DNA from: Deltaproteobacteria bacterium
GTDB lineage: Bacteria; Desulfobacterota; Binatia; HRBIN30; JACQVA1
Length of the DNA stretch: 64,000 nt
Direction of reading: 5' to 3'
Assembly: GCA_016178705.1 (NCBI GenBank)
Contig: JACOST010000008.1
Coordinates: 102,069-166,068 of the forward strand
In this document: positions 687-42,803 of the stretch, in pieces
Layout of the letters: each line of letters opens with the position of its first letter
Numbering within the stretch: the stretch's first letter is position 1
The notes under the pieces: generated by a model
Databases searched by the model: none
Seen by the model: only the letters and a program-made list of their open reading frames with translations
Told to the model about the DNA's origin: nothing
Made by a program: the position numbers and the translations under genes

Positions 687-1236
687 TCTCGTTGATGTCG
701 TCGAGCGATTGATCGACGCCTTCGAGGCGACGCAGATTCCGTACGCGTTGGGGGGCGCCATCGCATACAGCGCGTGGGCCGAGCCCCGGGCAACGCGCGA
801 TATCGATCTCAACATCTGGCTCGATATGGAACATTTCGAGCCCGCATTTCGCTTGTTGGAAGCGTGCGGCGTCACGCTCGATCGGCCTGCCGCGCTGCAG
901 GCCGCGCGGGAGCGCGGGATGTTCGTCGTCCGCCACGGAGAGTATCGCATCGATGTCTTTGTCCCGAGCGTGCCCTTCTACGCCGAGGCGCTGGCGCGGC
1001 GTCAACGCGTCCGGATGGTCGATCGCGACACGTGGGTGCTGTCCGCGGAAAGTCTCGCGGTGTTCAAGATGTTGTTTCATCGTCCGAAGGACATCGCCGA
1101 CGTCGGCCGTCTCATCGAGATTCGCGGCGACGTGTTCGACGTCGACTTTGTCCGCCGGTCGTTGGTCGACATGCTCGGCGAAGACGAAGAGCGAATCGCC
1201 AGTTGGGACCGCCTGGTTCACGAGCATCGACGGTAG
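652..1236 (+). CDS. Nucleotidyltransferase-fold protein (minimal NTase / AbiEii-like family)
   Basis: Translation contains ALGGAIAYSAWAEPRATRDIDLNIWLD, fitting the hG[GS]...D.D NTase active-site pattern. Start is uncertain (TTG at 652, GTG at 667). Confidence 0.5.
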   Translation: MTRRVVRDQLGSLVDVVERLIDAFEATQIPYALGGAIAYSAWAEPRATRDIDLNIWLDMEHFEPAFRLLEACGVTLDRPAALQAARERGMFVVRHGEYRIDVFVPSVPFYAEALARRQRVRMVDRDTWVLSAESLAVFKMLFHRPKDIADVGRLIEIRGDVFDVDFVRRSLVDMLGEDEERIASWDRLVHEHRR

Positions 1237-1264
1237 CGTTCGGTGCGCAAGGCCGCACCGTTCA

Positions 1265-2597: not shown

Positions 2598-3512
2598 ATG
2601 GCCGATTTGATCTTGCACCAGTACGACACCTCGCCGTTCTCCGAGAAGATCCGCAAGATCTTCGCGCACAAGCATCTGGCGTGGCGCGCGGTCGAGCAGC
2701 CGACCATCATGCCGAAGCCGCAACTGATCCCGCTCACCGGCGGCTACCGCAAAATTCCGGTGCTACAGATCGGCGCCGACGTGTATTGCGATACGCAGCT
2801 CATCGCGCGCATTATCGAAGGGCTACATCCCGAGCCGACACTCTATCCCGACAACAGCGAGGGCGCGTGCCACGCCATCGGGATGTGGGCGGACCGGTTG
2901 TTCTTCTTCTCCACCATCCCAGTGCTGTTCGCGCTCCTCGGCGACAACCTGCCGCAGGCATTCATCGACGATCGCACCAAGATGATGCCCGGCCGCAACT
3001 TCGCCGACATTCCGAAGCTGGCACCGTACGCGAAGGAGCAGTGTCGTGGCTTCGCGGCCTGGCTCAACGCACAGCTCAGTGACGGCCGCGCCTTCCTTCT
3101 CGGTCAGCGGTTCAGCTTGGCCGACGCGGCGTGCTACCACCCGGTCTGGTTCCTGCGGAACGTGCCGCCGGCGGCGACGGTGTTCGACGAGTTCCCCAAG
3201 CTGATCGCCTGGTCGGAACGCATCAAAGCCATGGGTCACGGCCAACGCAGCGACATGGACCCCGCCGACGCGTTGCGCATCGCGCGTGAGAGCAACAGCG
3301 CGACGAAGGAAGTCATCGATCCGAACGATCCCAGCGGTTTGAAGCCGGGCGACAAGGTTGCTGTCACTCCAGACGACTACGGCTTCGATCCGGTCGCGGG
3401 CACGGTAGTGATGTCGTCAGTGCACGAGGTCGCCATCCGGCGGCAGGCAGCAGAAGTCGGTGAGGTAGTGGTGCACTTCCCGCGCGTGGGATTTCGCGTC
3501 GACCGAGCGTGA
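2598..3512 (+). CDS. Glutathione S-transferase family protein
   Basis: 304 aa with an N-terminal thioredoxin-like GST_N region (HQYDTSPFSEKIRKIFAHKHL...IPVLQIGADVY) and a C-terminal helical domain. Intact ORF. Confidence 0.7.
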   Translation: MADLILHQYDTSPFSEKIRKIFAHKHLAWRAVEQPTIMPKPQLIPLTGGYRKIPVLQIGADVYCDTQLIARIIEGLHPEPTLYPDNSEGACHAIGMWADRLFFFSTIPVLFALLGDNLPQAFIDDRTKMMPGRNFADIPKLAPYAKEQCRGFAAWLNAQLSDGRAFLLGQRFSLADAACYHPVWFLRNVPPAATVFDEFPKLIAWSERIKAMGHGQRSDMDPADALRIARESNSATKEVIDPNDPSGLKPGDKVAVTPDDYGFDPVAGTVVMSSVHEVAIRRQAAEVGEVVVHFPRVGFRVDRA

Positions 3513-3548
3513 TTGACGCTCATACGCGGAGGAATTGCCCAGCCAGAA

Positions 3549-4186: not shown

Positions 4187-4234
4187 GTTCTGCGCGACAC
4201 CATCCGAAGGACCCTGCGGGATGAGCCTCCGACG

Positions 4235-4476
4235 CGTTACGCATCGCCCACGAGAGCACGAGCACGACGAAAGAAGCCGCCGACCCGAACGACCCGAGCG
4301 GCCTCAAACCCGGCGAGAAGGTCAGCGTCACCCCAGACGACTACGGCTTCGATCCGGTCGCGGGCACGGTAGTGATGTCGTCGGTGCATGAGATCGCCAT
4401 CCGCCGCAACGCAGCGGAAGTCGGTGACGTGGTAGTGCACTTCCCGCGCGTGGGATTTCGAATCGACCGAGTGTGA
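4235..4476 (+). pseudogene. 3'-terminal fragment of a GST gene paralogous to 2598-3512 (encodes only the last ~80 codons, no start codon)
   Basis: 4241-4479 aligns with 3273-3515 at about 88% nucleotide identity, with differences mostly at third codon positions. The in-frame translation DALRIAHESTSTTKEAADPNDPSGLKPGEKVSVTPDDYGFDPVAGTVVMSSVHEIAIRRNAAEVGDVVVHFPRVGFRIDRV* parallels the GST C-terminus. The open frame begins right after a stop at 4232-4234. Confidence 0.6.
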
Positions 4477-4534
4477 TTGACGGTCTAACGCTTCGAAGAC
4501 TGCGCCGCGAAGCATTCAACTCGCGAGGCACCGG

Positions 4535-19186: not shown

Positions 19187-21273
19187 TAGGCTTTCGCGGC
19201 GCGCGCCGCCTCCGCTTCTTTGACGATCTTCTCGGTGAGGTGCGCCGGCACTTCGTCGTAGTGATCGAACCCGATCGTGAACGAACCCCGGCCACTCGTC
19301 ATCGAGCGCAGGTCGGCGGCGTACTTGAGCACTTCCGCCATCGGAACGAGCGCACGAATCACCTGTCCACCCGCTTTGGTGTCCACACCGAGCACCTTGC
19401 CGCGACAACTGTTGAGGTCACCGATGACGTCACCCATGCAATCGTCCGGCACGGCGATCTCCATGGTCATCACGGGTTCGAGCAGGATCGGCTTGGCCTG
19501 GCTCATCGCGGCCTTGAACCCGAGCGACGCGGCGATCTTGAACGCCATTTCCGAGGAATCGACGGCATGAAACGAACCGTCGTACAGCGTCGCGCGGACA
19601 TCGACCACCGGGTAATGCGCCAGAATGCCTTCGCCGAGCGCTTCGCGGATGCCCTTTTCCACTGCCGGAATGAATTGCCGCGGGACCACGCCGCCGACTA
19701 TAGCATCGACGAACTCGAAGCCGCTACCGCGCGGCAGCGACTCGACCTTGAGCCAGGTGTCGGCGAACTGTCCGCGACCGCCCGATTGTTTCTTGAGTTT
19801 GCCCTGCGCCTCGGCGCGGCCCTTGATCGTCTCGCGATACGGAACCTTGGGCGCCTTGAGAGTGACCTCTACACCATACTTGCGCTTGAGCTTCTCGACC
19901 GCCACCTCGATGTGCAGCTGTCCGACACCCGACAGGATGATCTCGCGCGTCTCCGCATCGCGCGTCACGTGCAGCGTGAGATCTTCCTCCATCATCTTGT
20001 GCAGCGCCAGGGTCGCCTTCTCTTCGTCGCCCTTCGACTTGGGTTCCACCGCGAAGGACATCGACGTGGGGATCTCGATCAAGCCGGGATACAGGATGGG
20101 CGCCTTTTCATCCGCCAACGTATCGCCCGATGCGGTTTCCTTGAGCTTTGGCACCGCAACGATCTCGCCCGCGATCGCGTACGCGATTGCTTGCTGCTTC
20201 TTGCCTTCGAGTTTGAACAAGTGGCCGAAGCGCTCCTTGGCGTCGCGGCTGACGTTGAGCACCGTCGCGTCGGCGTTGACCCGGCCCGACAACACGCGAA
20301 ACACCGAGAGCTTGCCGGCGAACGGATCGACGATGGTCTTGAACACCAGCGCGGAGAACGGCTCATCGATCGCCGGGCGACGGCTGATCGGTTCGCGTAT
20401 TTTGGGATCGCGGCCCTCGGCCTCGCCCCGATCGGCGGGTGACGGCAAGTACGAAACGATCGCGTCGAGCAACGGGGGAATGCCGATGTTCTTCGCCGAC
20501 GAACCGCACAACACCGGCACCAGTTTGCCCGCGACCGTACCCACGTGCAGGGCGTGTTGGATCTCCTCGGTGGTCAACGCGCCCGCGTCGAGATATTTTT
20601 CGAGCAACTCATCGTCGGCTTCCGCCACCAGTTCCATGAGCTGCTCGCGCGCCGCCTTGGCGTCGGCCTGCATGTCGGCGGGAATCGGCTCCTCCGCCAT
20701 CGTGCCGTTCTCCTTCGCCACCAGCGCACGCATACCGACGAGGTCGATCACACCGCGAAACGTCTCCGCGGCGCCGAGCGGCAATTGAATCGGCACCGCC
20801 TTCGCACCGAGGATCGTCTTGAGATCGTCGACCGCCGCTGCGAAGTCGGCACGTTCACGATCCATCTTGGTCACAAACGCGATGCGCCCGAGTTGCAACT
20901 GATCGGCACGCTGCCACAGATTCTCGGCTTCGACTTTGATCTCGCCGTGCGCCGCAGCCAACACGAACACCAACCCGCTGGCGGCGCACATGCACGCCAG
21001 GGCGTCGGGGACGAAGTTGGCGTAGCCCGGCATGTCGAGCAGCGTGACATCGTGCTTACGCCAGGTCAGGTGATGAAACGCGGTGGTCAGTGTGAGTTGT
21101 CGACGCACTTCCTCCGGCTCGTGGCCGAAGGCGGAGGTGCCGTCATCGAGCCGCCCGATGCGTGTCGTGGCGCCGCCATCGAACAGCATGGTTTCTCCGA
21201 GGGCGGTCTTGCCGACACCGCCCTGACCAACAATGCCAAGGTTGCGAATCGATCCAACGTCCTCGACGGGCAT
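19186..21273 (-). CDS. Elongation factor G paralog (EF-G-like GTPase) with non-canonical G motifs
   Basis: 695 aa with the full five-domain EF-G architecture. The P-loop is GQGGVGKT (canonical AHIDAGKT), G3 is DMPGYANF (canonical DTPGHVDF, so Tyr replaces the catalytic His) and G4 is TKMD. Confidence 0.8.
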   Translation of the reverse strand: MPVEDVGSIRNLGIVGQGGVGKTALGETMLFDGGATTRIGRLDDGTSAFGHEPEEVRRQLTLTTAFHHLTWRKHDVTLLDMPGYANFVPDALACMCAASGLVFVLAAAHGEIKVEAENLWQRADQLQLGRIAFVTKMDRERADFAAAVDDLKTILGAKAVPIQLPLGAAETFRGVIDLVGMRALVAKENGTMAEEPIPADMQADAKAAREQLMELVAEADDELLEKYLDAGALTTEEIQHALHVGTVAGKLVPVLCGSSAKNIGIPPLLDAIVSYLPSPADRGEAEGRDPKIREPISRRPAIDEPFSALVFKTIVDPFAGKLSVFRVLSGRVNADATVLNVSRDAKERFGHLFKLEGKKQQAIAYAIAGEIVAVPKLKETASGDTLADEKAPILYPGLIEIPTSMSFAVEPKSKGDEEKATLALHKMMEEDLTLHVTRDAETREIILSGVGQLHIEVAVEKLKRKYGVEVTLKAPKVPYRETIKGRAEAQGKLKKQSGGRGQFADTWLKVESLPRGSGFEFVDAIVGGVVPRQFIPAVEKGIREALGEGILAHYPVVDVRATLYDGSFHAVDSSEMAFKIAASLGFKAAMSQAKPILLEPVMTMEIAVPDDCMGDVIGDLNSCRGKVLGVDTKAGGQVIRALVPMAEVLKYAADLRSMTSGRGSFTIGFDHYDEVPAHLTEKIVKEAEAARAAKA

Positions 21274-24554: not shown

Positions 24555-27221
<2,667 letters not shown>

Positions 27222-27285
27222 GGGCGAAACAGATGCGTGCTGTCGCTACCGGAATCGAGTGCGCTGAGCAAGTGATGGTAGGCAG

Positions 27286-27370
27286 CTTCTGGTCTGTGGT
27301 TTCTGGTTTCTGGTCTGTGGTTTCTGGTCTCTGGCTTTCAGCTTTCGGCTTTCCGCTTTCAACTTCTTCC
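27286..27370. repeat. Tandem array with 7-nt period (ctggtct/gtggttt/ctggctt units, about 12 units)
   Basis: cttctggtctgtggtttctggtttctggtctgtggtttctggtctctggctttcagctttcggctttccgctttc, read directly from the sequence upstream of valS. Confidence 0.8.
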
Positions 27371-27443
27371 CTGCCTAGGTAGTGTCTCAGTTTGAAAATT
27401 CAACGGGCTTGGAACGACCCGGCAATCGTGCGATCTTGTCCGC

Positions 27444-27674
27444 ATGCCGAAGGGACCGCAAGGCCAGCGCAGACCCGCCGACGTGATCGGCAACGCGGTC
27501 CACGTGATGCGGATTGCGACCGGCGAGATTGAGGATACGCCACGCGACCCCGGCAAAGAGTACATGCGCAAGGGTGGGCTGAAGGGCGGGAAGGCGCGGG
27601 CGGCGACGCTCAGCAAGAAACGGCGGACGCAGATTGCAAAAAATGCCGCTCGGGCACGATGGGAGAAACCGTGA
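27444..27674 (+). CDS. Small basic conserved hypothetical protein (76 aa)
   Basis: MPKGPQGQRRPADVIGNAVHVMRIATGEIED...KGGLKGGKARAATLSKKRRTQIAKNAARARW. I recognise this as a widespread small-protein family of unknown function but cannot name it. Confidence 0.35.
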   Translation: MPKGPQGQRRPADVIGNAVHVMRIATGEIEDTPRDPGKEYMRKGGLKGGKARAATLSKKRRTQIAKNAARARWEKP

Positions 27675-27730
27675 ACCAAAACAAACAACGAAATTGCGGC
27701 GTGGTAGGCAACTTGCTGTCGTCTCCGAAC

Positions 27731-27961
27731 ATGGCGGATACAGTCGAACGAGTCGTTCTCTTGGCCGAGATCGAAAAGGGCCTCCGGAGTCGCGTTGCTG
27801 GAATTGACGGATGGCTGGCTGAAATTGGTAGCTCCTGTAAAACGGACCAGCGTCATTGCGAAGAGGGGACGGTCGAGCGCGCCTATTGGCACTACGGCTA
27901 TGCCGTAGCGATCAAGGACGTGCTCGACCTCCTTCAGTCAGCGGCGATGCCGATCAACTAA
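27731..27961 (+). CDS. Hypothetical protein
   Basis: ORF MADTVERVVLLAEIEKGL... with no recognisable motif. Confidence 0.2.
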   Translation: MADTVERVVLLAEIEKGLRSRVAGIDGWLAEIGSSCKTDQRHCEEGTVERAYWHYGYAVAIKDVLDLLQSAAMPIN

Positions 27962-28365
27962 GCACCACACGCCGGGCAGTGGTTCCAGGCGTAAGGCTTC
28001 GCCGGATGGATCTCGTTGTCCAGCCGCCCCTGCGCACCACCGAATGCATGGTAGAGGAGGCATTCCTTTTCGTAAGCGGCCGTTGCATTAGGAAAGTGGC
28101 CGTACATGAAGTACCGGTATTTGCCGATCCAATCCTTCAGACGGCCGTTCAAGTCGTCGTCGGATCGTCCGGCATAGCGAATGGTCAGCGAGTTATCGGG
28201 AAGGAGCACATCACCAAGAAGATAAGCGCCGATCGACCTGCTGACGTTCGCATCAATTTCTGAGCGTGTCAGGCTAAAGATTCCGGAAAGACCAGTTGCA
28301 ATTGCCATTGCAAACCTCATCATCTGCGGTTCGTGACCGCCGTAAAGGACTTGCCAGGAATTCAT
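27958..28365 (-). CDS. Hypothetical protein, weak GIY-YIG-nuclease-like motif spacing, C-terminal CxxC
   Basis: GIFSL...AYLLG...R...YRYFMYGHF...AYEKECLLYHAF...N and a C-terminal NHCPACGA. The resemblance to GIY-YIG is by eye only. Co-oriented and immediately downstream of the HTH-HATPase-STAS gene. Confidence 0.25.
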   Translation of the reverse strand: MNSWQVLYGGHEPQMMRFAMAIATGLSGIFSLTRSEIDANVSRSIGAYLLGDVLLPDNSLTIRYAGRSDDDLNGRLKDWIGKYRYFMYGHFPNATAAYEKECLLYHAFGGAQGRLDNEIHPAKPYAWNHCPACGA

Positions 28366-28524
28366 GGACTCGCTAAGAAGGCTTCTGCTCGGCTAATTCT
28401 GGCAAACCCGAGTTGATACCACCGACAAGGCCGCTGCGTGGGGCAGCGGCCTTGTCGCCTTGATGGGACTGAATCTTCTTGTACGGCACTTCCAGATAAG
28501 CGTCCTCCCTTCCCCTTCTGCACT

Positions 28525-29652
28525 CTAAGCTATTTCCGTCTCCCCCTTTGGGCGCGGTCCTTCGCCATTCTCGCTCAGTGGCGTCATGCCGGGCAGAAAT
28601 GGTGTTTCGGTATTGCCGCCGTCGCTCTTGACGTGCAGAATCATTCGCACCACGTCGGAACTAGCGTTCACTTGCCAGATGTGAATGTCTGGATGCTCGC
28701 GGGCGAACACTCGAAATATCTCGTCAGCGAATCCCTGGCCAATACTTTCAACCCCAGAGAAGTCGAGAACGACCTCCCTAAAGTGGTCAACCCGCTTGAG
28801 GAGTCGGCGCGCCTGCGATCGAGAAACCAGCATCTCGCCGTCATGCTGAGCAAGGCTTGCGACCAAGTGGGTGCGCGTAAACCCGTAGTGGTCGGTGCTC
28901 GGCGCAAATTGGTTGAACACTTCCAACGCTGTTCGCAGCGACAGAGGATGGATGGTCATGTGGACATGGGTCCCTGCCGCTGGGGCCGGGTCTATCTCTA
29001 ACAGCCAGTCCTTTTCGTCACGGTGCGCGAAGTACAACTGGGCCGACATGATGCCGAACAGATCGAACATCCTGGAAGTAAAAAAGATGCCTTCGCCACT
29101 GTGGTGGGCATGGTCGGTTGTGAGTTTTCCCTTTGAGAGTTCCAATACAGCGTGTCGCGGATCATCAAGTCCGAAGGCCCTTTGGAGCTTGGCGAAGATT
29201 CCGACGCCGTGGTCGACGACGGTCAGCCCGATCGCTGCGGCCGTGCGGCTGATACCAACGACAAATGCGGGAGACTCTGAATGCACGATCGCGTTGTTCA
29301 CGATTTCCGTGATCCCGTGTTGACAAATGGTTCGCACGTTTGCCGGTACGTCCTTCAGGTGCGGTAGAATCTCATTTCGCCATACCTCATCTTCGTTGAC
29401 GCCAGGACCGATCTCTCGTCGTGCGACATGGTTCACCAGTTGGGCGAGACAATACGATCTGCCCTTTGTATCTCCATTGGGAATGAGCCAACCCATCTGG
29501 ACAAGATCATGTAGGTGGCGATGTACTGCCTGCCGACTCACATCGAAGTGTTCCGCAGTCACTCTGGCGATGTCACCAGGATGGGCCGCGACATTGTCCA
29601 CAATCCACCGCTGCATGGACTCCTGCTCTGACATGGCCGTATTTGAAACCAT
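28525..29652 (-). CDS. HTH – GHKL (HATPase_c, RsbW/SpoIIAB-like) – STAS-like (DUF4325) fusion protein
   Basis: N-terminal wHTH (DIARVTAEHFDVSRQAVHRHLHDL). GHKL N-box ITEIVNNAIVHS, G1 VVDHGVGIF, G2 HHSGEGIFF. C-terminal VVLDFSGVESIGQGFADEIFRVF...VNASSDVVRMI matches the DUF4325 consensus. Confidence 0.55.
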   Translation of the reverse strand: MVSNTAMSEQESMQRWIVDNVAAHPGDIARVTAEHFDVSRQAVHRHLHDLVQMGWLIPNGDTKGRSYCLAQLVNHVARREIGPGVNEDEVWRNEILPHLKDVPANVRTICQHGITEIVNNAIVHSESPAFVVGISRTAAAIGLTVVDHGVGIFAKLQRAFGLDDPRHAVLELSKGKLTTDHAHHSGEGIFFTSRMFDLFGIMSAQLYFAHRDEKDWLLEIDPAPAAGTHVHMTIHPLSLRTALEVFNQFAPSTDHYGFTRTHLVASLAQHDGEMLVSRSQARRLLKRVDHFREVVLDFSGVESIGQGFADEIFRVFAREHPDIHIWQVNASSDVVRMILHVKSDGGNTETPFLPGMTPLSENGEGPRPKGETEIA

Positions 29653-29797
29653 GATCGCGCGTTTGTCAACCTACACGCTTTGATTTGGCAACGGGACATG
29701 GTAGATTTGCGCCGTTCTTCGGTTTTTGGTGGTAACGATGGCTCCAAATAGTCAATTGATGCTTGACACTCAAGCAAAAATATCATATACTCCGGGC

Positions 29798-30652
29798 ATG
29801 AACAGATTGCCCCTAGCCAAGCGCGCCCAAATCCTCTCGCTGCTCTGTGAAGGTTCGTCGATGCGCTCAGTGTCGCGGCTCGTGGACGTGTCGATCAACA
29901 CCGTCACCCGCGAGCTGATCCTTGCCGGCCAGGCATGCACGGCATTCCACGATCAGGTGGTGCGCAACGTGAACTCCAAGCGCATTCAGTGTGATGAGAT
30001 TTGGTCGTTCTGCTACTCCAAGGCGAAAAACGTCCCGGAAGAGAAGCGAGGGAAGTTCGGGTACGGCGACGTGTGGACGTGGACGGCAATCGACGCCGAT
30101 TCCAAGCTCTGTCTTTCGTGGTTTCTTGGCGGACGCGATGCGGGCGCGGCCTACTACTTCATGATGGACCTATCGGAACGCCTCACGTCGCGCGTGCAAC
30201 TCACGACCGACGGGCACAAGACGTACCTCAGCGCCGTTGAATCCGCGTTTGGCATCGGGATCGACTATGCGATGCTGGTGAAGATTTACGGCGCATCGCC
30301 CGAGGGCGAAACGCGCTACAGCCCAGCGGTCTGCATCGGCACCGAACGCCACGCGGTCACGGGCGACCCGGACCCCGAGCACATTTCAACGAGCTACGTG
30401 GAACGCTCAAACCTCACGATGCGGATGCACATGCGCCGCTTTACTCGCCTCACCAACGCCTTCTCGAAGAAGATCGAGAACCACGGCCACATGGTTGCGC
30501 TCTATACGGTCTGGTACAACTTCGTGAGAATCCACAAGACGCTGCGGATGAGTCCGGCGATGGCTGCTGGTGTTACGTCGGCCCTCTTGTCGATGGAAAA
30601 CGTGGTCGAGATGGTCGATCAGTGGGAAGCGGCGAAAAAGACCGCGACGTGA
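29798..30652 (+). mobile_element. IS1-family transposase (single-ORF form with HTH + DDE)
   Basis: CDEIWSF...TTDGHKTY...ERSNLTMRMHMRRFTRLTNAFSKKIENH parallels E. coli IS1 InsB (DEQWGY...TDGWPLY...[28 protein letters not shown]). There is an AT-rich stretch just upstream (29770-29795). Terminal inverted repeats are not defined. Confidence 0.7.
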
Positions 30653-30669
30653 TAGAGACCAAAGCCGCA

Positions 30670-31119
30670 ATGGAAACAGAGGACAACCCACCACCGCGCG
30701 CCAGCGTGAACTACCGACGCGGCCTAACACGCTTGTATGTTGTGATCTCGGCCCTCTGGATTGCATTTGTCCTAGTCGGCGTGCCGTGGTGGGCACGTGA
30801 TACATGGATACGGAACGCTAGCGTGGCTTTGGAGCAGAAAAAGCAGGAGATGTCCTCCCGCGACGCGGCCCTGAAGAAGTCCCCGATCGACCAACGCGAA
30901 GCGGATGAGCATCAACGCCTCGCCGACGAACATCAGCGTGACGCCGAGTGGTTCCGGCAGCACGCAGACAACTGGTGGTCAGAAACCTGGCTTGCCCCGC
31001 GCCTGTTGTCGCTTTGGGCAATCGCCCTCGGCGCAATACCAATAGCTCTCTATGGCATTCTCTACGCACTGATTTCGGGACTGGACTGGGCCAAGCGCGG
31101 CTTCAGAAATTCAAACTGA
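30670..31119 (+). CDS. Hypothetical membrane protein (2 TM helices)
   Basis: Hydrophobic segments LYVVISALWIAFVLVGVPWW and LLSLWAIALGAIPIALYGILYALI. No other motif. Confidence 0.3.
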   Translation: METEDNPPPRASVNYRRGLTRLYVVISALWIAFVLVGVPWWARDTWIRNASVALEQKKQEMSSRDAALKKSPIDQREADEHQRLADEHQRDAEWFRQHADNWWSETWLAPRLLSLWAIALGAIPIALYGILYALISGLDWAKRGFRNSN

Positions 31120-31205
31120 GACACTACCCCTGCCTACTGTCCCTTGACCGTGTCGCAGCGGGAAGCTATCACCGTCGCGCGCTAGCCGACAGTGTTCACA
31201 CCCAT

Positions 31206-31289
31206 GCGAAAGTGGCGGAACTGGCAGACGCGCAGGATTCAGGATCCTGTGGGGTAAAACCCGTGGGGGTTCAAGTCCCCCCTTTCGCA
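31206..31289 (+). tRNA. tRNA-Leu (anticodon CAG), long variable arm
   Basis: Acceptor stem GCGAAAG/CTTTCGC, D-arm TGGCGGAACTGGCAGACGCG, anticodon stem-loop CAGGA-TTCAGGA-TCCTG (CAG at positions 34-36), long variable arm, T-arm GGGGGTTCAAGTCCCCC. No CCA encoded. Confidence 0.8.
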
Positions 31290-31488
31290 CTTCGTCCGTT
31301 GAGCGCTAACGCATTTGCCAGATCTACCTGACGCTGCGTTTGTTGCTGTTTCTCGCTACCACCCAGCAGGCCCACGACCCGCATCGCAGCGCTTCGCGAA
31401 GTAAGATGCGATAGCCGGAAGCTAACACTCCGGAACGAATAGAGGACCCCTTCCCTCCCCGAGCGCCTGTTCGGCGATCTAGGGAGCG

Positions 31489-35362: not shown

Positions 35363-35407
35363 TCTAAATTCCTGCTCGACAAATCTCGCCGAGTTGCGCG
35401 CCCGCCG

Positions 35408-35455
35408 CGGCATGGCCGCGTAGAGTCACTCAAGCCGCCTTCGCCGTGACGGACA
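35408..35455. repeat. 48-bp direct repeat, copy 1 (includes the last 8 codons + stop of the higA-like gene and 24 nt downstream)
   Basis: cggcatggccgcgtagagtcactcaagccgccttcgccgtgacggaca matches 36197-36245 with 2 mismatches. Confidence 0.75.
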
Positions 35456-36177: not shown

Positions 36178-36196
36178 AACCGGGCGGGATTTCGGC

Positions 36197-36245
36197 GGCA
36201 TGGCCGCGTCGAGTCGCTCAAGCCGCCTTCGCCGTGACGGACATG
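36197..36245. repeat. 48-bp direct repeat, copy 2 (orphan higA 3'-end remnant upstream of higB)
   Basis: The minus strand reads ...ATGTCCGTCACGGCGAAGGCGGCTTGA, i.e. SVTAKAA*, the same C-terminal codons as the higA-like gene. Confidence 0.75.
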
Positions 36246-36504: not shown

Positions 36505-37710
36505 ATGAACGGTCACATGGAAAGGACAATGAAGGCGTCGCACGTCCTGCTCACGTCGAGAAGACTATCATTCTTGCCGATCTTTGGACTCGTGTTGGTC
36601 GCGTTGAATACGGGAGCTACGTTACAGGCACAATTCCCTGCTCGCGGAGACGATGTTACGCCGTCGCTCGGCCAATTTAATGTCGTCGTTGATCCCCACT
36701 TCGAGGCTGCAATCCAGAGCAATCCCGCGTATGGCCCGTTTCTCTCCAACAAGGGCGGTAACTTGAATTTCACCAGCCCGATCCTCTTTGATCCGACAAC
36801 AACGATCGGGCGAAGTGACCCGCTCAGCGCAGGTTCGGCTGAGGATATCGCCGGGGTGCTGTCGGGGACTTTGGCGCCGCGCCTGCTTCAAGACGGCCAA
36901 TTCACGGTGAGGCCCTCCTTTGCGGAGGGCCCCGACGGCACGCACGAGGTTCACACTTTCATCGAATCCCTCCACCTGATGGGAAATGGATTCGAAGTGA
37001 AGGCCGGAGACCAAGCTCCGCGGCGGCCAATCAGCGTGGGTGAGGTGGAGTCTCTGTCCGGCAACAGCGGGAATCCGATTCAGGACTTCCCGGCTAACAG
37101 CTTTTTCGATGTCTTCGTTGAGGTAGACGTTCCCGCTCTGGGGGGATTTCCGAGTGTCCAGTTGGTCAATGTCGATCCCCTCTTGGTTCAAAGCGACAGT
37201 ATCACCAGCTTCCCGCCAACCGTTCTCTATGTACACGGGAACTCTTCCGCCGTGCCGCTATACTTCTACGCGGACATACCTGTTTTCGGCGTTCATCGAG
37301 GGGACCTGTTCGGCCAACTGACTGTGGCCGGCCACGGGGTCGGCTTCACCGAGGCGGACGTGGCGGAGTTCGAAGCCAAGGAAATGGAATCCGAGCAGCA
37401 TCGTGGTCGTCTGCCGCTTCAGGCCAATCCAATCCCGCACGTGACCATTGTCGATGAGGTTTTGAACACTCCCACACCAACACCGACACCCACACCAACA
37501 GCGACCCCGACAACGACCCCTCCGCCCTGTATCGGCGATTGCGATGGCTCGCGCTCCGTGACCGTCGAGGAACTAATCATCGGGGTCAACATCGCGCTGG
37601 ACCAAGCACCGCTCAGCGGCTGCATGAACTTCGACAGCGACAACAGTCAGACGGTCACCGTCGAGGAACTGGTGCAGGCAGTCGGCAACGCGCTGGGCAA
37701 CTGCCCGTAG
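36505..37710 (+). CDS. Secreted protein with Pro/Thr linker and C-terminal dockerin-like tandem calcium-binding repeats
   Basis: Signal peptide MKASHVLLTSRRLSFLPIFGLVLVALNTGATLQA. Linker TPTPTPTPTPTATPTTTPPP. C-terminus CIGDCDGSRSVTVEELIIGVNIAL...CMNFDSDNSQTVTVEELVQAVGNAL has two DxDxS/N..VTVEEL repeats. The start is one of ATG 36505, 36517 or 36529. Confidence 0.5.
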   Translation: MNGHMERTMKASHVLLTSRRLSFLPIFGLVLVALNTGATLQAQFPARGDDVTPSLGQFNVVVDPHFEAAIQSNPAYGPFLSNKGGNLNFTSPILFDPTTTIGRSDPLSAGSAEDIAGVLSGTLAPRLLQDGQFTVRPSFAEGPDGTHEVHTFIESLHLMGNGFEVKAGDQAPRRPISVGEVESLSGNSGNPIQDFPANSFFDVFVEVDVPALGGFPSVQLVNVDPLLVQSDSITSFPPTVLYVHGNSSAVPLYFYADIPVFGVHRGDLFGQLTVAGHGVGFTEADVAEFEAKEMESEQHRGRLPLQANPIPHVTIVDEVLNTPTPTPTPTPTATPTTTPPPCIGDCDGSRSVTVEELIIGVNIALDQAPLSGCMNFDSDNSQTVTVEELVQAVGNALGNCP

Positions 37711-37748: not shown

Positions 37749-37822
37749 CCCGGCCTGAGGCTGGCCCGGGATGCCATCCGCGGTTACCTCGAATGCCCTG
37801 TGTATCAACGAGAAGAGAAAAG

Positions 37823-37895
37823 TGGAGCTGAACGGAATCGAACCGTCGACCTCCTGAATGCCATTCAGGCGCTCTCCCAACTGAGCTACAGCCCC
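37823..37895 (-). tRNA. tRNA-Ala (anticodon GGC) with the G3:U70 identity pair
   Basis: The reverse complement GGGGCTGTAGCTCAGTTGGGAGAGCGCCTGAATGGCATTCAGGAGGTCGACGGTTCGATTCCGTTCAGCTCCA folds as a canonical cloverleaf. The anticodon loop ATGGCAT gives GGC. Acceptor pair 3:70 is G:U. Confidence 0.8.
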
Positions 37896-37944
37896 ACAGG
37901 TGAGTGGACGCAAAAGTTGTAACCGAAACGCTACGGCAGGGCAA

Positions 37945-38007
37945 GGTTTTGGATTGCGGATTGGGGATTGCGGAGTGCGGAATGCAGAGTGCGGAATGCG
38001 GAATGCC
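37945..38007. repeat. Heptamer tandem array (GGATTGC/GGAATGC/GGAGTGC units, about 9 units)
   Basis: ggttttggattgcggattggggattgcggagtgcggaatgcagagtgcggaatgcggaatgcc. Confidence 0.8.
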
Positions 38008-38027
38008 ACCACGGTCCGCGCGAATGA

Positions 38028-38090
38028 GTCACGAACACGACTCACCAGTCACGAATCACGATTTCACGATCTCACGACCTCACGGTCCGC
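38028..38090. repeat. Heptamer tandem array (CACGAAT/CACGATT units, about 8 units)
   Basis: gtcacgaacacgactcaccagtcacgaatcacgatttcacgatctcacgacctcacgg. Confidence 0.75.
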
Positions 38091-38401
38091 GCAGACGGAT
38101 GTCGTCTTTGCCCTCCATCATCTCGGGCGTGACGATGTAGGTACCGCGGCAGGCGTTGTCCCAGATTTTCTGCGTGGCATCCGCATCGCCGAGGGTGACC
38201 GCGTACACCAGCACGCCGGTGACACCACCGATGATCGAGTAGACCAGCTTGAGCGGCAGGTAGACGATGTTGGTCAGCACCGCACCGGTGATCACGATCG
38301 GACGGTGTCCCTCGTCTTCTGCGTCTCGCCGTACCGCGTGAGCCGGCGCCACGAGCAGTGCGATCACGATGATTGCGATGAACGTTCGACTGCTCCCACG
38401 C
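38080..38401 (-). CDS. Small hypothetical membrane protein
   Basis: MRGSSRTFIAIIVIALLVAPAHA...IVITGAVLTNIVYLPLKLVYSIIGGVTGVLVYAVTL has two hydrophobic helices. The start is uncertain. Confidence 0.3.
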
Positions 38402-38429
38402 ATCCGCCACCTCCTCGTCCGCAGAATAC

Positions 38430-38512
38430 GGAGTCCAAACCTCAAAGTCCAAGGTTCAAAGTCAACTCTTGGGCTTGGAACTTTGGACTTTAGACCTTGG
38501 ACTTTGGACTCA
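38430..38512. repeat. Heptamer array with inverted symmetry (AAAGTCC units then GGACTTT units); overlaps the last codons of rarA
   Basis: gagtccaaacctcaaagtccaaggttcaaagtcaactcttgggcttggaactttggactttagaccttggactttggactc. Confidence 0.75.
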
Positions 38513-39863
38513 TCTTTTCCCGCCAGCGCTCGAGGCGCTCTTTGATCGCGCGCTCTTCGCCAATGTCGGTGGGCTCGTAGTAGCGGCGGCCGGCGAGCCG
38601 GTCGGGCAGGTGTTGCTGCGCGACGACGTGTTCGTCGTAGTCGTGAGCATACTTGTAGTCGCGCCCGTAACCCAATCCCTTCATCAGCGGCGTCGGCGCG
38701 TTGCGCAAGTGCAGGGGAGTGGACAACGCGCCGTGTTCCTTGACGTCGGCGGCGGCCGCCAGCATCGCCTTGTACGAGGCATTCGATTTCGGTGCAGTGG
38801 CCAAGTACGTCACCGCTTGCGCGAGCGGGATACGACCTTCGGGCAAGCCGATAAAATGGAACGCGTCCTTCGCCGCCACCGCGATCTGCAACGCGCGCGG
38901 ATCGGCGTTGCCGACATCTTCGGCCGCAAAGATCACCATCCGGCGCGCGATGAAGAGCGGATCTTCACCGGCTTCGATCATCCGCATCATCCAATACACC
39001 GCCGCGTCGGGATCGCTGCCGCGCATGCTCTTGATGAACGCCGAGATGACGTTGTAGTGCTCTTCGCCCGCTTTGTCGTAGAGCAGCGCGCGGTGCTGCG
39101 AAGCTTCTTCGGCGTGCGTCAACGCGATCACCGGCGTGCCCGCTCGGCCGGCGAGATCGGCGGCCGCTTCGAGCACGTTGAGGGCGGAGCGCGCGTCGCC
39201 GTGCGCTTGCTCGGCGATAAACGTGCGGGCCGCCGCATCGAGGGTCAGACGGCGCTCGCCCAAGCCGCGCTCGTGATCGTGGAGAGCGCGATCAAGCAAG
39301 CCCGCGATTTCCTCGGCCGTCAGCGCCTGCAGCACAAGCACCGAGCAGCGCGACAGCAACGGCGCGATCACCTCGAACGAAGGATTCTCGGTGGTCGCCC
39401 CGATCAACACGATCGAGCCGTCTTCGACGTGGGGCAGAAACGCATCCTGCTGCGCCTTGTTGAAACGGTGGATCTCGTCGACGAACAGAATCGTGCGGCG
39501 CCCGTTGAGCCGTAGGGCCTCGTGCGCTTCTTCGATGACCTGACGCAATTCCTTCACTCCCGAGAGCACGGCGGAGAAGTGGGTGAAGTGGCACTGCGTC
39601 GAGTGCGCGATCAGCAGCGCGAGTGTGGTCTTGCCGGTGCCTGGAGGTCCCCACAGAATCAGCGCGTGCAGCCGTTGGCCGTCGATCATCTCGCGCAGCA
39701 AACGGCCGGGCGCGATCAGATGACTCTGACCGATCACTTCGTCGAGACTGCGCGGCCGGATGCGATCGGCGAGCGGGGCACCCTCCTGGCGCACGCGCTC
39801 GGCCTCGGCGGTGAACAAATCCGGCCCGCTGCCGCGCATGGGAGATCGCTTGGGCATGCGCAT
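38490..39863 (-). CDS. rarA: Replication-associated recombination protein A (AAA+ ATPase RarA/MgsA)
   Basis: Walker A GPPGTGKTT, Walker B ILFVDEIHRFNKAQQD, and a C-terminal MgsA helical domain. Confidence 0.85.
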   Translation of the reverse strand: MRMPKRSPMRGSGPDLFTAEAERVRQEGAPLADRIRPRSLDEVIGQSHLIAPGRLLREMIDGQRLHALILWGPPGTGKTTLALLIAHSTQCHFTHFSAVLSGVKELRQVIEEAHEALRLNGRRTILFVDEIHRFNKAQQDAFLPHVEDGSIVLIGATTENPSFEVIAPLLSRCSVLVLQALTAEEIAGLLDRALHDHERGLGERRLTLDAAARTFIAEQAHGDARSALNVLEAAADLAGRAGTPVIALTHAEEASQHRALLYDKAGEEHYNVISAFIKSMRGSDPDAAVYWMMRMIEAGEDPLFIARRMVIFAAEDVGNADPRALQIAVAAKDAFHFIGLPEGRIPLAQAVTYLATAPKSNASYKAMLAAAADVKEHGALSTPLHLRNAPTPLMKGLGYGRDYKYAHDYDEHVVAQQHLPDRLAGRRYYEPTDIGEERAIKERLERWREKMSPKSKV

Positions 39864-39920: not shown

Positions 39921-39993
39921 GGGTGACGCATGCGTCGCCCGCGATCGAGGTGGTCGACCGCGGAGAAGACGGAGGGCGATGCATGCATCGCCC
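39921..39993. promoter_or_regulatory. Two related 20-bp palindromes (GGGTGACGCATGCGTCGCCC and GGGCGATGCATGCATCGCCC) in the divergent rarA / nadK-recN intergenic region
   Basis: Read directly from the sequence. The second is a perfect palindrome and the first has one imperfect pair. Spacing between them is about 33 bp. Confidence 0.4.
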
Positions 39994-40074
39994 CTACGTT
40001 TCAGAGACGGCCGCGTCTCCGTGGCAGCGGCACACGCGGTATGGTAGCGTTCGCGGCGTGACGGGATCCAACTG

Positions 40075-40932
40075 ATGCAGCGCATCGGGGTGGTGGTGAA
40101 ACGCGGGCGGGCCAAAGCGCTGGCCCTTGGTCGCGAGTTGGTCACGTGGCTGCGCCAACGCGATCTCGTCCCGCTGATCGATGCCGACAGCGCCACCGAA
40201 CTGCACGACGGCACGGGCGTCTCCAAGGCCGAAATGGCGGCGACCGCCGATCTCATCGTCGTCCTCGGCGGCGATGGGACACTGCTCAGCATCGCCCGCT
40301 GCCTGCGCGAGCGCGCGGTGCCGATCCTTGGTGTCAACCTCGGCGGCCTCGGTTTCCTCACCGCCGTCACCTCGGACGAATTGTTCCCTGTGCTCGCCGA
40401 AGTACTCGCCGGCAAGTACACGGTCGAGCAGCGCATGACACTGGCGGCTTCGCTGCGGCGCGGCGGTAGCGTCATCGGGACGTATCAAGCGCTCAACGAC
40501 GTGGTGATCACCAAGGCCGTGCTCGCCCGCATCATTGATCTCGAGACCAACGTCGATGGCCAACACGTGGCGACGTACAAGGCGGACGGCTTGATCGTCG
40601 CCACCCCCACCGGCTCGACTGCGTATGCGATGTCCGCCGGAGGCCCGATCGTCTACCCATCGCTCGGTGTCATGGTGCTGTGCCCGATTTGCCCCCACAC
40701 GCTCACCAACCGGCCGATGGTGTTGCCGGAAACCTCGGTGCTGCAAGTAACAGTACGCTCCGACGCGCAGCAGGACGTGGTCCTCACGCTCGACGGACAA
40801 GAGGGCTACCCGCTGCACAACGGCGACGTGGTCGAGATCCGCAAAGGCGCGAGCGTGGTGCCGCTGATCGACTCGCCCGACCGCCGCTACTTCGAAGTGC
40901 TGCGCCAGAAGCTGCGCTGGGGCGAGCGGTGA
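40075..40932 (+). CDS. nadK: NAD+ kinase
   Basis: GGDGTLL motif ([16 protein letters not shown]) and an NAD kinase C-terminal domain. Confidence 0.85.
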
Positions 40933-40946
40933 GGCGCATGCGCCGG

Positions 40947-41078
40947 CAGATGGCTGATCGCCGATGGCTGATCGCAGAGCGAGCGTTCCGACTGGTTTTG
41001 CGGTTCTCCCTCCCACCATCAGCCATCAGCCATGTGCCATCAGCCACTCCCGCCATCAGCCACACGCCATAAGCCACC
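40947..41078. repeat. Heptamer array with inverted symmetry (GATGGCT units then CATCAGC units) between nadK and recN
   Basis: cagatggctgatcgccgatggctgatcgc...accatcagccatcagccatgtgccatcagccactcccgccatcagccacacgccataagccacc. Confidence 0.75.
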
Positions 41079-41084
41079 GCGGCC

Positions 41085-42803
41085 ATGCTCCGTTCTCTTC
41101 GCATCGCGAACTTCGCCATCATCGACGAGCTGGCGCTGGAGTTTGCGCCCGGCCTCAACGTCCTGACCGGCGAGACCGGTGCCGGCAAGAGTATCATCAT
41201 GCAGGCGCTCGGGTTGCTCTGCGGAGCGCGCGGATCGGCCGACCTCATCCGCACGGGCGCCGACGAAGCGGCGATCGACGCGGTGCTCGATTTGTCTGCC
41301 GATGCCCGTACGGCCGCAACGGAGTTGGGCCTCGACGGCGACGACGAACTGAGCTTGCGGCGCATGATCGCGCGCGCCGGCAAAGGGCGGCTGCACCTCA
41401 ACGGCAGTCCGTCGACGCTGGCGGTGCTGACGCAACTCGGGTTGCGGCTGCTGCACATCTACGGTCAGCATGAGTATGCGCTGCTGTTGCACCCGGATAC
41501 GCATCTCGACTTGCTCGATGACCTTGGCCGGCTTACGGCGCCTCGGCACGAGTTCACCACGGCGTATCGTGCCCTGGTGGCTGCGCACCACAATCTGACG
41601 GCGCTCACACAGGGCGGGCAAGCGGCGCGCGCGCACGCTGAGCTGCTGCGTTTTCAAATCACCGAACTCGAAGCCGCGGCACCGGAGCCGGACGAAGAAT
41701 CTCACCTTCAACAGGAACGCGAAGTGCTGCGCCACGCCGAGCAATTGGCGCAAGCGTGTGACGGCGGCGAGGCGGCACTGTACTCGGGCGACGATGCGGC
41801 GGCGCCGGTTGTCGCCCGCATCCGCACGCAATTGCGCGACCTCGCCCGCATCGACCCGCGCCTCAGCGAGATCGCCGCGTTGCTCGACGCTGCGCATACG
41901 CAACTCGACGAGGCGGCGCTGCAGTTGCGACAATACGCCAATCGCATTCATCACGATCCAGACAGATTGGCGGCGGCCGACGAGCGGCTCGCGCTGCTGC
42001 GCCAGTTGGCGCGCAAGCACAACTGCCGCGGCGACGAATTGGCCGCGCAGCTCGAGACGCTACGCGCCGAATTGGATCGCGTCACCGGTGCCGGGCTCGA
42101 TCTCGAATCGGCACAGCAGGCGGTGACCGTCGCCGCCCGCGCGGCCTGGCGAAGCGCCGCCGCCCTCTCTGCGGTGCGGCGCCTCGCCGGGTGCGAACTC
42201 GAGCGGCGCATGCACGCCGAGCTACCGACTCTGGGGATGGAAGGGGCAACCTTCACCGTGCAGTTTGCCAGCGAGATGAACGCCAGCGAGCCGTCGGCGA
42301 GTGATCCGTTCGTCCTTGGCGAGGCGCGGCTGAGCGAACGCGGCGGCGATCGCGTCGAGTTTCATCTCAGCGCCAACCGCGGTGAGGCGCCGCGCCCGCT
42401 CGCCAAGGTCGCCTCGGGCGGTGAGCTGTCGCGCATCATGCTGGCGCTCAAGGTCCTCACCGCCGGTGCCGGCGAAGTCGACACGCTGATCTTCGACGAA
42501 GTCGACACGGGGATCGGGGGCACCGTGGCCGACGCCGTTGGGCGCCGGCTCAAGGCGCTCGCATGCGAGCGGCAGATCCTGTGCATCACGCATCTGCCGC
42601 AGATTGCGGTCCACGCGGATCACCACTTCGCAGTCGAGAAGCGCGTGCGCAAGGGCCGCACGGTGACCAGCGCAAAGGCGCTGAGTCCCGACGAGCGCGT
42701 TGTTGAGTTGTCGCGCATGTTGGGCGGTGCCGTCACCAGCCGCGAGGCGGAACGCTACGCGCGCCGCCTGATCTCCGAGGCGCACAAGGGGTCTCCAGCC
42801 TGA
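41085..42803 (+). CDS. recN: DNA repair protein RecN
   Basis: MLRSLRIANFAIIDELALEFAPGLNVLTGETGAGKSIIMQAL..., SMC-like coiled-coil, and a C-terminal signature ...LSGGELSRIMLAL...IFDEVDTGIGG. Confidence 0.85.
   Translation: MLRSLRIANFAIIDELALEFAPGLNVLTGETGAGKSIIMQALGLLCGARGSADLIRTGADEAAIDAVLDLSADARTAATELGLDGDDELSLRRMIARAGKGRLHLNGSPSTLAVLTQLGLRLLHIYGQHEYALLLHPDTHLDLLDDLGRLTAPRHEFTTAYRALVAAHHNLTALTQGGQAARAHAELLRFQITELEAAAPEPDEESHLQQEREVLRHAEQLAQACDGGEAALYSGDDAAAPVVARIRTQLRDLARIDPRLSEIAALLDAAHTQLDEAALQLRQYANRIHHDPDRLAAADERLALLRQLARKHNCRGDELAAQLETLRAELDRVTGAGLDLESAQQAVTVAARAAWRSAAALSAVRRLAGCELERRMHAELPTLGMEGATFTVQFASEMNASEPSASDPFVLGEARLSERGGDRVEFHLSANRGEAPRPLAKVASGGELSRIMLALKVLTAGAGEVDTLIFDEVDTGIGGTVADAVGRRLKALACERQILCITHLPQIAVHADHHFAVEKRVRKGRTVTSAKALSPDERVVELSRMLGGAVTSREAERYARRLISEAHKGSPA

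Follow-up and report, generated by a model that had tools for sequence, protein, structure and literature searches.

Heptamer simple sequence repeats (SSRs) have long been noticed as a peculiarity of bacterial genomes. Three cyanobacterial families, STRR1 (CCCCAGT), STRR2 (TTGGTCA) and STRR3 (CAACAGT), were reportedly described by Mazel et al. in 1990. A further heptamer, GGGGA(C/T)T, is found in Nostoc (PMC4692102), where deletion of heptamer repeats alters the output of recF/recO reporters (bioRxiv 10.1101/2022.06.06.494920). Heptamer SSRs are over-represented in many bacteria, and polymerase slippage favoured at this unit size has been proposed as the cause (Mrazek 2007, as cited in PMC4692102). 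The GGGAATC arrays of Xanthomonas, (GGGANTN)n, comprise 2–26 imperfect units, occur chromosome-wide and differ in length between species (PMC4692102). Approximately 185 heterogeneous arrays per genome and 70–75 convergent inverted pairs have been counted (Rehm et al. 2015, PMC4692102); 89–93 % of the arrays are intergenic, at a mean of 28 nt from the upstream ORF, and 7–11 % overlap ORFs (PMC4692102). Geobacter metallireducens carries GGACCGG in four copies at 49 sites and MTYCTGA in five copies, with the repeats located within and between genes (PMC2700814). Direct repeats of TAACTGA are present in Beggiatoaceae, cyanobacteria and Bacteroidetes, for which candidate binding proteins and a role in translational regulation have been proposed (MacGregor 2015, PMC4679880). 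In the Vibrio cholerae ctxAB promoter, TTTTGAT heptads are described in a preprint as recruiting transcriptional regulators (bioRxiv 10.1101/2021.05.14.444153).

No paper on heptamer repeats in Binatia was found in the literature. The 64,000 nt stretch of DNA analysed here (the window) derives from a member of Candidatus Binatia, an uncultured soil or groundwater bacterium. The heptamer arrays that it carries are genuine and statistically clear; the host is new and the phenomenon is not, since such repeats are known from Xanthomonas, cyanobacteria and Geobacter. A sequence-only reading of the same DNA had rightly taken the arrays for heptamer microsatellites of the STRR kind. Its view of heptamer repeats as belonging mainly to heterocystous cyanobacteria was too narrow, given their over-representation in many bacteria including Xanthomonas, Geobacter metallireducens, Beggiatoaceae and Bacteroidetes. 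The myxobacteria-like context that it described was mistaken, as the RarA protein encoded in the window is closest to those of Candidatus Binatia MAGs, with identities of 97 % to L055 and 85 % to L001. A look-up by exact protein match assigned the window to contig JACPZC010000026.1 (154 kb) of the MAG GCA_016195705.1.

The closest precedent is the GGGAATC arrays of Xanthomonas. Both hosts are high-GC, and in both the arrays are imperfect, mostly intergenic and close to where the upstream ORF ends, with a minority overlapping ORFs, lengths that vary among related species and inverted pairs capable of forming stem loops; pairs in the window are likewise convergent and intergenic. In contrast, Xanthomonas has one dominant G3-containing, G-quadruplex-capable unit, whereas the Binatia window has at least eight units, none with GGG in its consensus. 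Classical G-quadruplexes are not expected in the Binatia arrays because their units have at most GG. One third of the Binatia arrays are inside ORFs and in frame, and the host phylum differs. Cyanobacterial STRRs resemble the present arrays in that several heptamer families occur per genome, in tandem, mostly intergenically and sometimes inverted, but have other unit sequences and another host, and are often longer and more perfect. STRR in the strict sense (STRR1–3 units in a heterocystous cyanobacterium) does not describe the window, whose host is Candidatus Binatia.

The host lineage shares with G. metallireducens its classification with the deltaproteobacteria. However, the fixed copy number and single consensus of each Geobacter family suggested discrete elements or binding sites, while copy number and units vary in Binatia. 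The TAACTGA repeats are intergenic, often directly upstream of start codons (compare the nadK–recN right arm and recN) and in some cases within ORFs, yet they consist of a single unit that is almost always direct, inverted once, and present in 2–6 copies in that genome. The ctxAB heptads lie directly upstream of a −35 box, as do arrays A and B described below, but are confined to one locus, which has established binders (ToxT/ToxR/H-NS) and copy-number-dependent promoter activity.

Heptamer arrays in the window

A lag-match scan of the 64 kb window returned 10 loci of period 7 and 0–2 for periods 4, 5, 8, 10, 11 and 13; periods 6, 9, 12 and 15 are codon multiples. With a stricter lag criterion (28 nt window, at least 80 % lag matches), dinucleotide shuffles (n=20) yielded no loci at any period. 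TRF reported nine period-7 rows in the window, each of at least 4.4 copies (Table 1). Perfect two-copy heptamers numbered 12, against approximately 3 predicted from the 4-fold decay between periods 4 and 5. The arrays have three properties of the LSSR 5–11 class of Mrazek et al. (2007): 7 nt units head to tail in at least 3–4 copies, an excess of period 7 over other non-triplet periods and over chance, and unit gain or loss between related genomes, seen as an indel in L055 and as differences in L001.

Five loci had been proposed from the letters of the sequence, and TRF and the sequence itself place imperfect tandem heptamers at or near each of them. The period-7 excess extends beyond these loci, with four more arrays in the window and two more in the 8.4 kb of contig past the window end (L094 184–244 and 1491–1519); the 5.5 kb past the opposite end contain none. 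The label ‘intergenic’ is incomplete, because the four additional arrays within the window sit in frame inside ORFs. The arrays, including the 2 outside the window, are scattered across the 78 kb of contig sampled, at a density of about 150 per Mb.

At least eight different units without a common core occur in the 78 kb: GGAATGC, CCGAAAT, AAAGTCC, GATGGCT, CGTGAnn, CAGTAGG, CTGGTTT and GCTTTCR. The GC content of the arrays is 39–62 %, compared with 63 % for the window, and all are interrupted, with a longest perfect run in the window of about 2.5 units. Arrays begin 0–16 nt past the stop codons of the 107-aa gene, rarA, nadK, secG and pgk. No terminal motif common to the arrays was found, and searches of Rfam 15 gave no matches at the arrays even at E ≤ 1; only two tRNAs were matched in the window. 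Two further ORFs, 953–2413 (+) and 373–1407 (−), have no exact-protein record, and their true start codons probably differ.

Table 1. Heptamer arrays and neighbouring features, with positions in the window
Feature	Position	Strand	Unit or composition	Basis and remarks
TIR-STAND-TPR protein	4535–7489	minus	984 aa	Pfam and gene call
STAND loop 3 array	4666–4699	minus	GGAATGC (sense)	TRF; encodes GMRNADSGMRN
STAND loop 2 array	4908–4945	minus	CCGAAAT (sense)	lag scan 4908–4942; encodes EKSEIQNPKSEI
STAND loop 1 array	5080–5119	minus	CCGAAAT/CCGAAGT (sense)	TRF 5086–5116; encodes NSKSEVRNPK
ValRS	24555–27221	minus		Pfam and gene call
valS in-frame array	25413–25455	minus	GCAGTAG-type (sense), 21 nt super-period	TRF 25413–25445; encodes AVGSEQTAVGSADL
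Array A	27284–27368		CTGGTYT, ~7 units, then GCTTTCR, ~5	TRF 27287–27339 and 27334–27365
tRNA-Ala(GGC)	37822–37895	minus		ARAGORN; Rfam 66.5 bits
Putative tRNA-Ala promoter	37916–37944	minus	−35 TTGCCC (37939–37944), 17 nt spacer, −10 TACAAC (37916–37921)	
Array B	37945–38007		GGATTGC/GGAATGC (plus-strand reading), ~8–9 units	TRF 37951–38006, 8.0 copies, 83 % matches
12 nt direct repeat	38010–38021 and 38081–38092		CACGGTCCGCGC	brackets array C
Array C	38024–38084		TCGTGAN on minus strand (TCACGAA on plus), ~8.5 units	TRF 38029–38084
107-aa hypothetical protein	38080–38403	minus		gene call; signal-peptide-like N-terminus
rarA 3′ inverted pair	38430–38512	minus	AAAGTCC then GGACTTT	TRF 38432–38510; ~35 bp hairpin
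RarA	38490–39863	minus		Pfam and gene call
NadK	40075–40932	plus		Pfam and gene call
nadK–recN left arm	40947–40976	plus	GATGGCT/GATCGCC alternating, 4 units	TRF 40949–40975
nadK–recN right arm	41013–41078	plus	CCATCAG, ~8–9 units, inverse of left arm	TRF 41016–41076
RecN	41085–42803	plus		Pfam and gene call
secG–leuU array	outside window, secG stop codon to tRNA-Leu(GAG)		CGTGAnT, ~9 units	6 nt from tRNA 5′ end
pgk–tpiA array	outside window, 53 nt spacer		CAGTAGG, 4 units	

Probable growth of the arrays in place

Array lengths differ between the window and its relatives. The left arm of the nadK–recN pair is 36 nt longer in L055, and substitutions between the window and L055 are concentrated in the arrays. 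In the more distant L001, the rarA 3′ and nadK–recN arrays exist as versions of 2–4 units, and rudiments are present at three of four comparable intergenic loci, array B having none. The spacer orthologous to the tRNA-Ala region lacks array B and has array C only as a rudiment (CCGTGACGTTGTGACGACTCGT; CCGTGACGTTGTGAC...), and the window has approximately 100 nt here that are missing from L001. The position of this rudiment, at the same place as array C, points to growth in place.

Among 80 loci of relatives (1.33 Mb), 27 three-copy heptamer arrays were found, concentrated in L001, L003, L005, L017, L055 and L064. The 64 kb window has 8 and is thus about 6-fold denser.

Logan assemblies from five runs are identical to the window where they cover it, four of them at the tRNA-Ala and rarA loci and two at the nadK–recN locus, and the same 984-aa TIR-STAND-TPR protein was recovered from independent assemblies. 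A check of copy number, suggested in the sequence-only reading, showed no variation within the population in the assembly consensus of five runs, and length differences from the species-level relatives L055 and L001; at present the arrays are not hypervariable. The idea that the arrays mark recombination-prone regions found no support, the arrays being identical in every covering read-set assembly. A metagenome scan with NadK for strain variants returned only distant relatives, at most 57 % identical. An assembly artefact was considered and rejected; the arrays are identical in independent assemblies and occur in modified forms in other species.

It is rather probable that the arrays are lineage-specific heptanucleotide SSRs (‘STRR-like’) which have grown by slippage, are mostly tolerated and have locally been co-opted. 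The population itself showed no copy-number variation, and slippage is accordingly deduced solely from differences between species. Seeds of 2–3 units would expand or contract in place via slipped-strand mispairing or unequal exchange; seven-base loops exceed the size handled by MutS-type mismatch repair. If a second, inverse array arises, template switching or selection for pairing could keep the arms complementary, and long hairpins would result. Arrays would persist where they are tolerated, that is in intergenic spacers, at the 3′ tail of an ORF or in surface loops of proteins. Within ORFs only lengths divisible by 3 would survive, and units creating in-frame stops would be mutated. As the arrays are now interrupted, they would be stable. 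Pure random slippage does not account for the recurrence of the same unit at unlinked loci; this recurrence and the arrays in STAND loops fall outside the slippage explanation and carry the novelty of the case.

Arrays upstream of tRNA genes

Arrays B and C together make up the focal region (37945–38090). On the minus strand the order is 107-aa gene, array C, a 22 nt spacer, array B (GCATTCC/GCAATCC), 6 nt, the putative promoter and tRNA-Ala. The two arrays had been described as flanking tRNA-Ala; as both are upstream, on the 5′ side of the tRNA, there is no flanking. Array C begins at the TGA stop codon (38080–38082) of the 107-aa gene, and the second copy of the 12 nt direct repeat spans the final codons and the stop codon. 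The 107-aa protein has no Pfam matches, and an orthologue of its gene is present in L001. Array B starts 6 nt upstream of the putative −35 box. Both promoter hexamers and the tRNA are conserved in L001; the promoter is described as putative because a strict sigma-70 scan gave no call there. Predicted RNA structure in the focal region shows no excess on either strand (z 0.6 and 0.0).

Array A (TTCTGGT ×7.4, then GCTTTCR ×4.6 by TRF) has a 21 nt super-period with 96 % matches. It is located in a divergent spacer, 63 nt before the start codon of valS. Prior to an IS insertion, 16 nt separated its end from the downstream −35 box of tRNA-Leu(CAG). No RNA structure was predicted for array A (z 0.4). 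All three tRNA genes in the sampled 78 kb have an array on their 5′ side. Given their UP-element or upstream-activator position, arrays A and B may modulate the two tRNA promoters.

These locations raise the question of whether the arrays could be multi-site platforms for a trans-acting protein that binds DNA or RNA, and so form a dispersed regulatory network. Candidates would be a nucleoid or UP-element-type factor acting at the tRNA promoters or, for GGA units, an RNA binder of the S1/Csp/CsrA kind; array B contains seven GGA motifs at 7 nt spacing. However, GGA is present in only three of the eight unit families, so that a universal GGA core was rejected, and the at least eight units in 78 kb have no other core in common. 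The reuse of a limited unit repertoire at unlinked loci, with related units in other Binatia genomes, agrees with a network, but the same unit may be found in either orientation with respect to transcription (valS and pgk–tpiA; array C and the secG array). Likewise, arrays A and B abut two tRNA −35 boxes and a third array lies 6 nt 5′ of tRNA-Leu(GAG), yet array B is missing in L001 despite the conserved promoter, and 0 of 12 tRNA genes in the relatives’ loci have an array. A general association of arrays with tRNAs was rejected on the latter count; three tRNA genes are the whole basis of the association, which is specific to this genome. Although the ctxAB heptads, the candidate TAACTGA binders and the reporter effect in Nostoc provide precedents, a binding platform is an unlikely explanation of the arrays.

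A role in providing stop codons in all three frames was also considered. It suits array C, with a TGA in each unit, and fails for the CGTGAnn array after secG, which is reversed, and for the left arm at rarA.

Unit recurrence and arrays within coding sequences

Several units are shared between loci. The AATGCGG unit is found at both 4666 and 37951, ACTGCCT in valS and in the pgk–tpiA spacer, and CGTGAnn beside two separate tRNA genes. Under a uniform model, two exact unit coincidences among 12 arrays have a probability of approximately 0.001. The related units GTCCAAR and CCGAART occur in other Binatia genomes. In IMG/VR, four perfect copies of GGAWTGC were found on 24 contigs and of CCGAART on 6, compared with 5 and 9 for scrambled controls. 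Enrichment of the GGAWTGC family is thus modest at best, and it was set aside as a special family. Public viral contigs thus commonly carry arrays of scrambled units as well, and unit recurrence therefore needs no special element.

Four arrays are within coding sequences. The valS array encodes a peptide in a loop between the motifs MN and DRWILSR which varies in length and sequence in an alignment of 14 ValRS homologues, and the unit that would yield an in-frame TAG has mutated. The other three are in the gene for the TIR-STAND-TPR protein. In an AlphaFold model of this protein (pLDDT 76.6, pTM 0.77), each array-encoded segment is in an inter-helix loop of a predicted alpha-solenoid. The insert in loop 3 is modelled with pLDDT below 50, and its 10 aa are absent from most homologues. 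STAND homologues from other phyla have heptamer arrays in the same three loops, with units GGAWTGC, CCGCAAT or CCGAART. One loop can hold different array families in different homologues, and many homologues have no insert. L099 has 6–7 arrays within one 2 kb STAND gene, and L100, which is Phycisphaerae-like, encodes a STAND homologue with loop arrays. Array-type peptides were detected in 16 of 120 STAND homologues, against about 0 for scrambled controls.

An ‘invasive microsatellite’, in which a mobile or ectopic gene-conversion mechanism would copy or insert whole arrays or inverted pairs at new sites in either orientation, would account for identical units at unlinked loci. Small dispersed repeats nested in the heptamer tracts of cyanobacteria are said to have led Elhai, in 2008, to propose such behaviour. 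Array C and the secG–leuU array share an odd 6 nt unit followed by the same heptamer (GTGTTC GTGACTC), and the 12 nt direct repeat brackets array C; but the two arrays do not resemble each other significantly in unit order (permutation p = 0.08). Paralogy of the whole arrays is suggestive by eye and is not claimed because of this value. Arrays in the same loops of STAND homologues from other phyla (16 of 120 against about 0) would also suit copying, although intragenic recombination between similar TPR repeats could shift loops within a STAND gene. Additionally, the rudiments at three of the four comparable loci in L001 argue for growth in place, the arrays have no shared terminal motifs, and scrambled-unit arrays are common too in IMG/VR (on 5 and 9 contigs, the real units being on 24 and 6). 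Invasion is, on balance, improbable.

A broader version of propagation would have the arrays as an actively propagated, orientation-independent system rather than passive products of slippage, a system that seeds tRNA promoters, intercistronic spacers and, in frame, the inter-helix loops in the TPR (sensor) domain of NLR-like TIR/STAND defence proteins, diversifying the loops through array gain, loss and exchange, with a small unit repertoire common to Binatia and even to other phyla. This combination is considered distinctly unlikely.

Inverted pairs near rarA and recN

Two of the loci, the rarA 3′ end and the nadK–recN spacer, are inverted arrangements capable of forming hairpins, as had been suspected and as folding z-scores now indicate. 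The rarA 3′ array overlaps the rarA stop codon (38490–38492), again in agreement with the sequence-only reading, and supplies the final RarA residues (...SPKSKV). This array-encoded tail lies beyond the Pfam MgsA_C domain, whose last residue is number 448 of the 457 in RarA. The stem follows the rarA stop codon and precedes the ribosome-binding site (GGAGG) of the gene downstream. Folding of region 38425–38520 gave −34.7 kcal/mol, with z −4.2 for the transcribed strand and −5.5 for the other strand. The second pair is indeed located between nadK and recN; its left arm starts 15 nt past the nadK stop codon and its right arm extends to the recN start codon (41085). Hairpin potential is retained in the window (z −2.9), L055 (−3.7) and L001 (−4.0), with units of the GATCGCC type on both arms in L001 and of the GATGGCT type on both arms in the window. 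The arms therefore co-evolve, the hairpin having been kept while both arms changed unit.

Five more inverted pairs are present in relatives, in addition to the two in the window. Directly after rarA, L017 has a TTAAGAG/CTCTTAA pair (z −3.7). Upstream of rarA are a pair in L003 (z −8.5) and a GTCCAAn/TTGGACn pair in L001 (z −5.7). The units of these three rarA-adjacent pairs are unrelated to those of the window pairs. Units and lengths differ from hairpin to hairpin and no shared termini of the REP, REPIN or MITE type were found among the hairpins, which are thus not the many near-identical palindrome copies of such elements.

The strong hairpins directly past the rarA and nadK stop codons, one of them conserved as hairpin potential in three genomes, could be taken for transcription terminators or attenuators, with the other arrays as their degenerate remnants. 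Terminators without a U-tract have been proposed for high-GC bacteria, but on the transcribed strand no U-tract comes after either window stem (the tails are GUAUUCUGCGG and AUCAGCCACUCC), and a terminator scan of the window found nothing at the arrays on the transcribed strands. The GC-rich stem loop plus U-tract of an intrinsic (Rho-independent) terminator is accordingly absent. Both hairpins are between co-oriented genes 86–152 nt apart, with the downstream ribosome-binding site or start codon immediately after; three of the five intergenic loci have no structure (z ~0); and the L003 and L001 hairpins are upstream of rarA, in a divergent promoter region. The terminator account is very doubtful. 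Of the earlier suggestion of transcription-terminating regions there remain hairpins, at two of the five intergenic loci at most, and these lack the U-tract.

That the arrays are phase-variation (contingency) switches, operated by unit gain or loss and with the TIR-STAND defence-like gene as the obvious target, is barely credible: slippage of a 7 nt unit in an ORF would cause a frameshift and three arrays share this one gene, but perfect tracts are no longer than about 2.5 units, the identical 984-aa protein and arrays recur in independent assemblies, and neither a long perfect tract nor copy-number heterogeneity was seen, as judged on assembly consensus sequences.

Implications

If the arrays are slippage-grown SSRs, the inverted pairs would place stem loops of about 30–40 bp in the transcripts running from rarA to the next gene and from nadK to recN. 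Such stem loops are most plausibly elements of processing, stability or attenuation rather than classical terminators. The in-frame arrays would add peptides with a 7 aa period to protein loops.

Current knowledge is not overturned by these arrays; their value is as a well-documented example and as a source of hypotheses. With Binatia, an uncultured lineage at phylum level joins the known hosts, and its array density is high over the 78 kb sampled; the orthologous sites at 97 % and 85 % protein identity make the birth and growth of arrays and the co-evolution of one arm with the other visible. Testable situations are provided by the arrays abutting tRNA promoters, the conserved hairpins beside rarA and recN, both of them DNA-repair genes, and the in-frame arrays in STAND loops.

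Heptamer arrays at tRNA genes

Within the 78 kb of this genome that was sampled (the window and same-contig sequence beyond its two ends), all three tRNA genes have a heptamer array on the 5′ side; in the loci of relatives, a 5′-side heptamer array was found at 0 of 12 tRNA genes. The tRNA-Leu(GAG) gene, in contig sequence beyond the window end (L094), is set in a secG-leuU-like arrangement.

The former spacer between valS and tRNA-Leu(CAG) is divided by an insertion with a lower GC content (~55 %). Exact 19-nt inverted termini, GGTAGTGTCTCAGTTTGAA, are present at both of its ends, and the 8-bp target duplication CCTGCCTA surrounds it (27370–27377 and 31129–31136). Its gene content consists of an IS1-like DDE transposase (a faint match), a DUF4325 gene and small ORFs. 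Before insertion, the end of array A, in the valS upstream spacer, lay 16 nt upstream of the −35 box of the tRNA-Leu(CAG) promoter.

Features and their positions (in the window unless a locus is named)
Feature	Position	Detail
tRNA-Ala and arrays	37822–38090	array 6 nt from putative −35 box
tRNA-Leu(CAG) region	31144–31290	array 16 nt from −35 box before IS insertion
−35 box, tRNA-Leu(CAG) promoter	31144–31149	TTGACC
tRNA-Leu(GAG) and array	L094 93–244	6 nt between array and mature 5′ end
Insertion, 3,751 bp	27378–31128	bounded by exact inverted termini and target duplication
TIR-STAND-TPR (NLR-like) genes	4535–7489; L099 10001–11995; L100 2809–4158	
Hypothetical gene	36592–37710	plus strand

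Other repeats in the window and contig

Array C, which follows the stop of a 107-aa gene, is bracketed by the 12-nt direct repeat CACGGTCCGCGC (38010–38021 and 38081–38092, spaced 71 nt apart), the second copy of which contains the end of that gene. This direct repeat may be the scar of a duplication or may have arisen by template switching.

The spacer between the divergent rarA and nadK genes contains two GC-rich palindromes that resemble each other, GGGGCGATGCATGCATCGCCC and GGGCGACGCATGCGTCACCCC (39930–40010); in L001, a relative with 85 % RarA identity, the corresponding site has an inverted heptamer pair instead. Within the same spacer, two Logan contigs (L087 and L088) start upstream of nadK at a distance of 106 nt.

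The hypothetical gene carries an in-frame hexamer array (ACACCG x7.3, 37471–37517) and a 43-nt segment duplicated 96 nt apart at 72 % identity (37558–37696), which suggests a product with internal protein repeats. Two dispersed direct repeats are also apparent, one of 49 nt (35407–35455 and 36195–36243; 96 % identity, 788 nt apart) close to two small paralogous ORFs, the other of 266 nt (3262–3527 and 4226–4491; 84 % identity, 964 nt apart) adjoining the DUF433/PIN genes that lie downstream of TIR-STAND. An intergenic 9-nt tandem repeat, AACGGATTG x3, beyond the window start (L096, ~19280–19310) is the sole non-triplet-like array besides heptamers observed in the additional contig sequence.

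Heptamer arrays within coding sequence

In-frame heptamer arrays occur within inter-helix loops of the TIR-STAND-TPR family in several phyla, including a Phycisphaerae-like locus (L100), and the loop insert is missing from many homologues. GGAWTGC arrays encode the peptides GMRNAEC/GLRIADC, and CCGAAAT/CCGCAAT arrays encode PKSEIRN/PQSAIRN. The homologue in L099 holds 6–7 arrays within 2 kb, including a perfect array of ATTGCGG x4.4, as well as an intragenic inverted pair. Across the family, one loop position can hold different array families.
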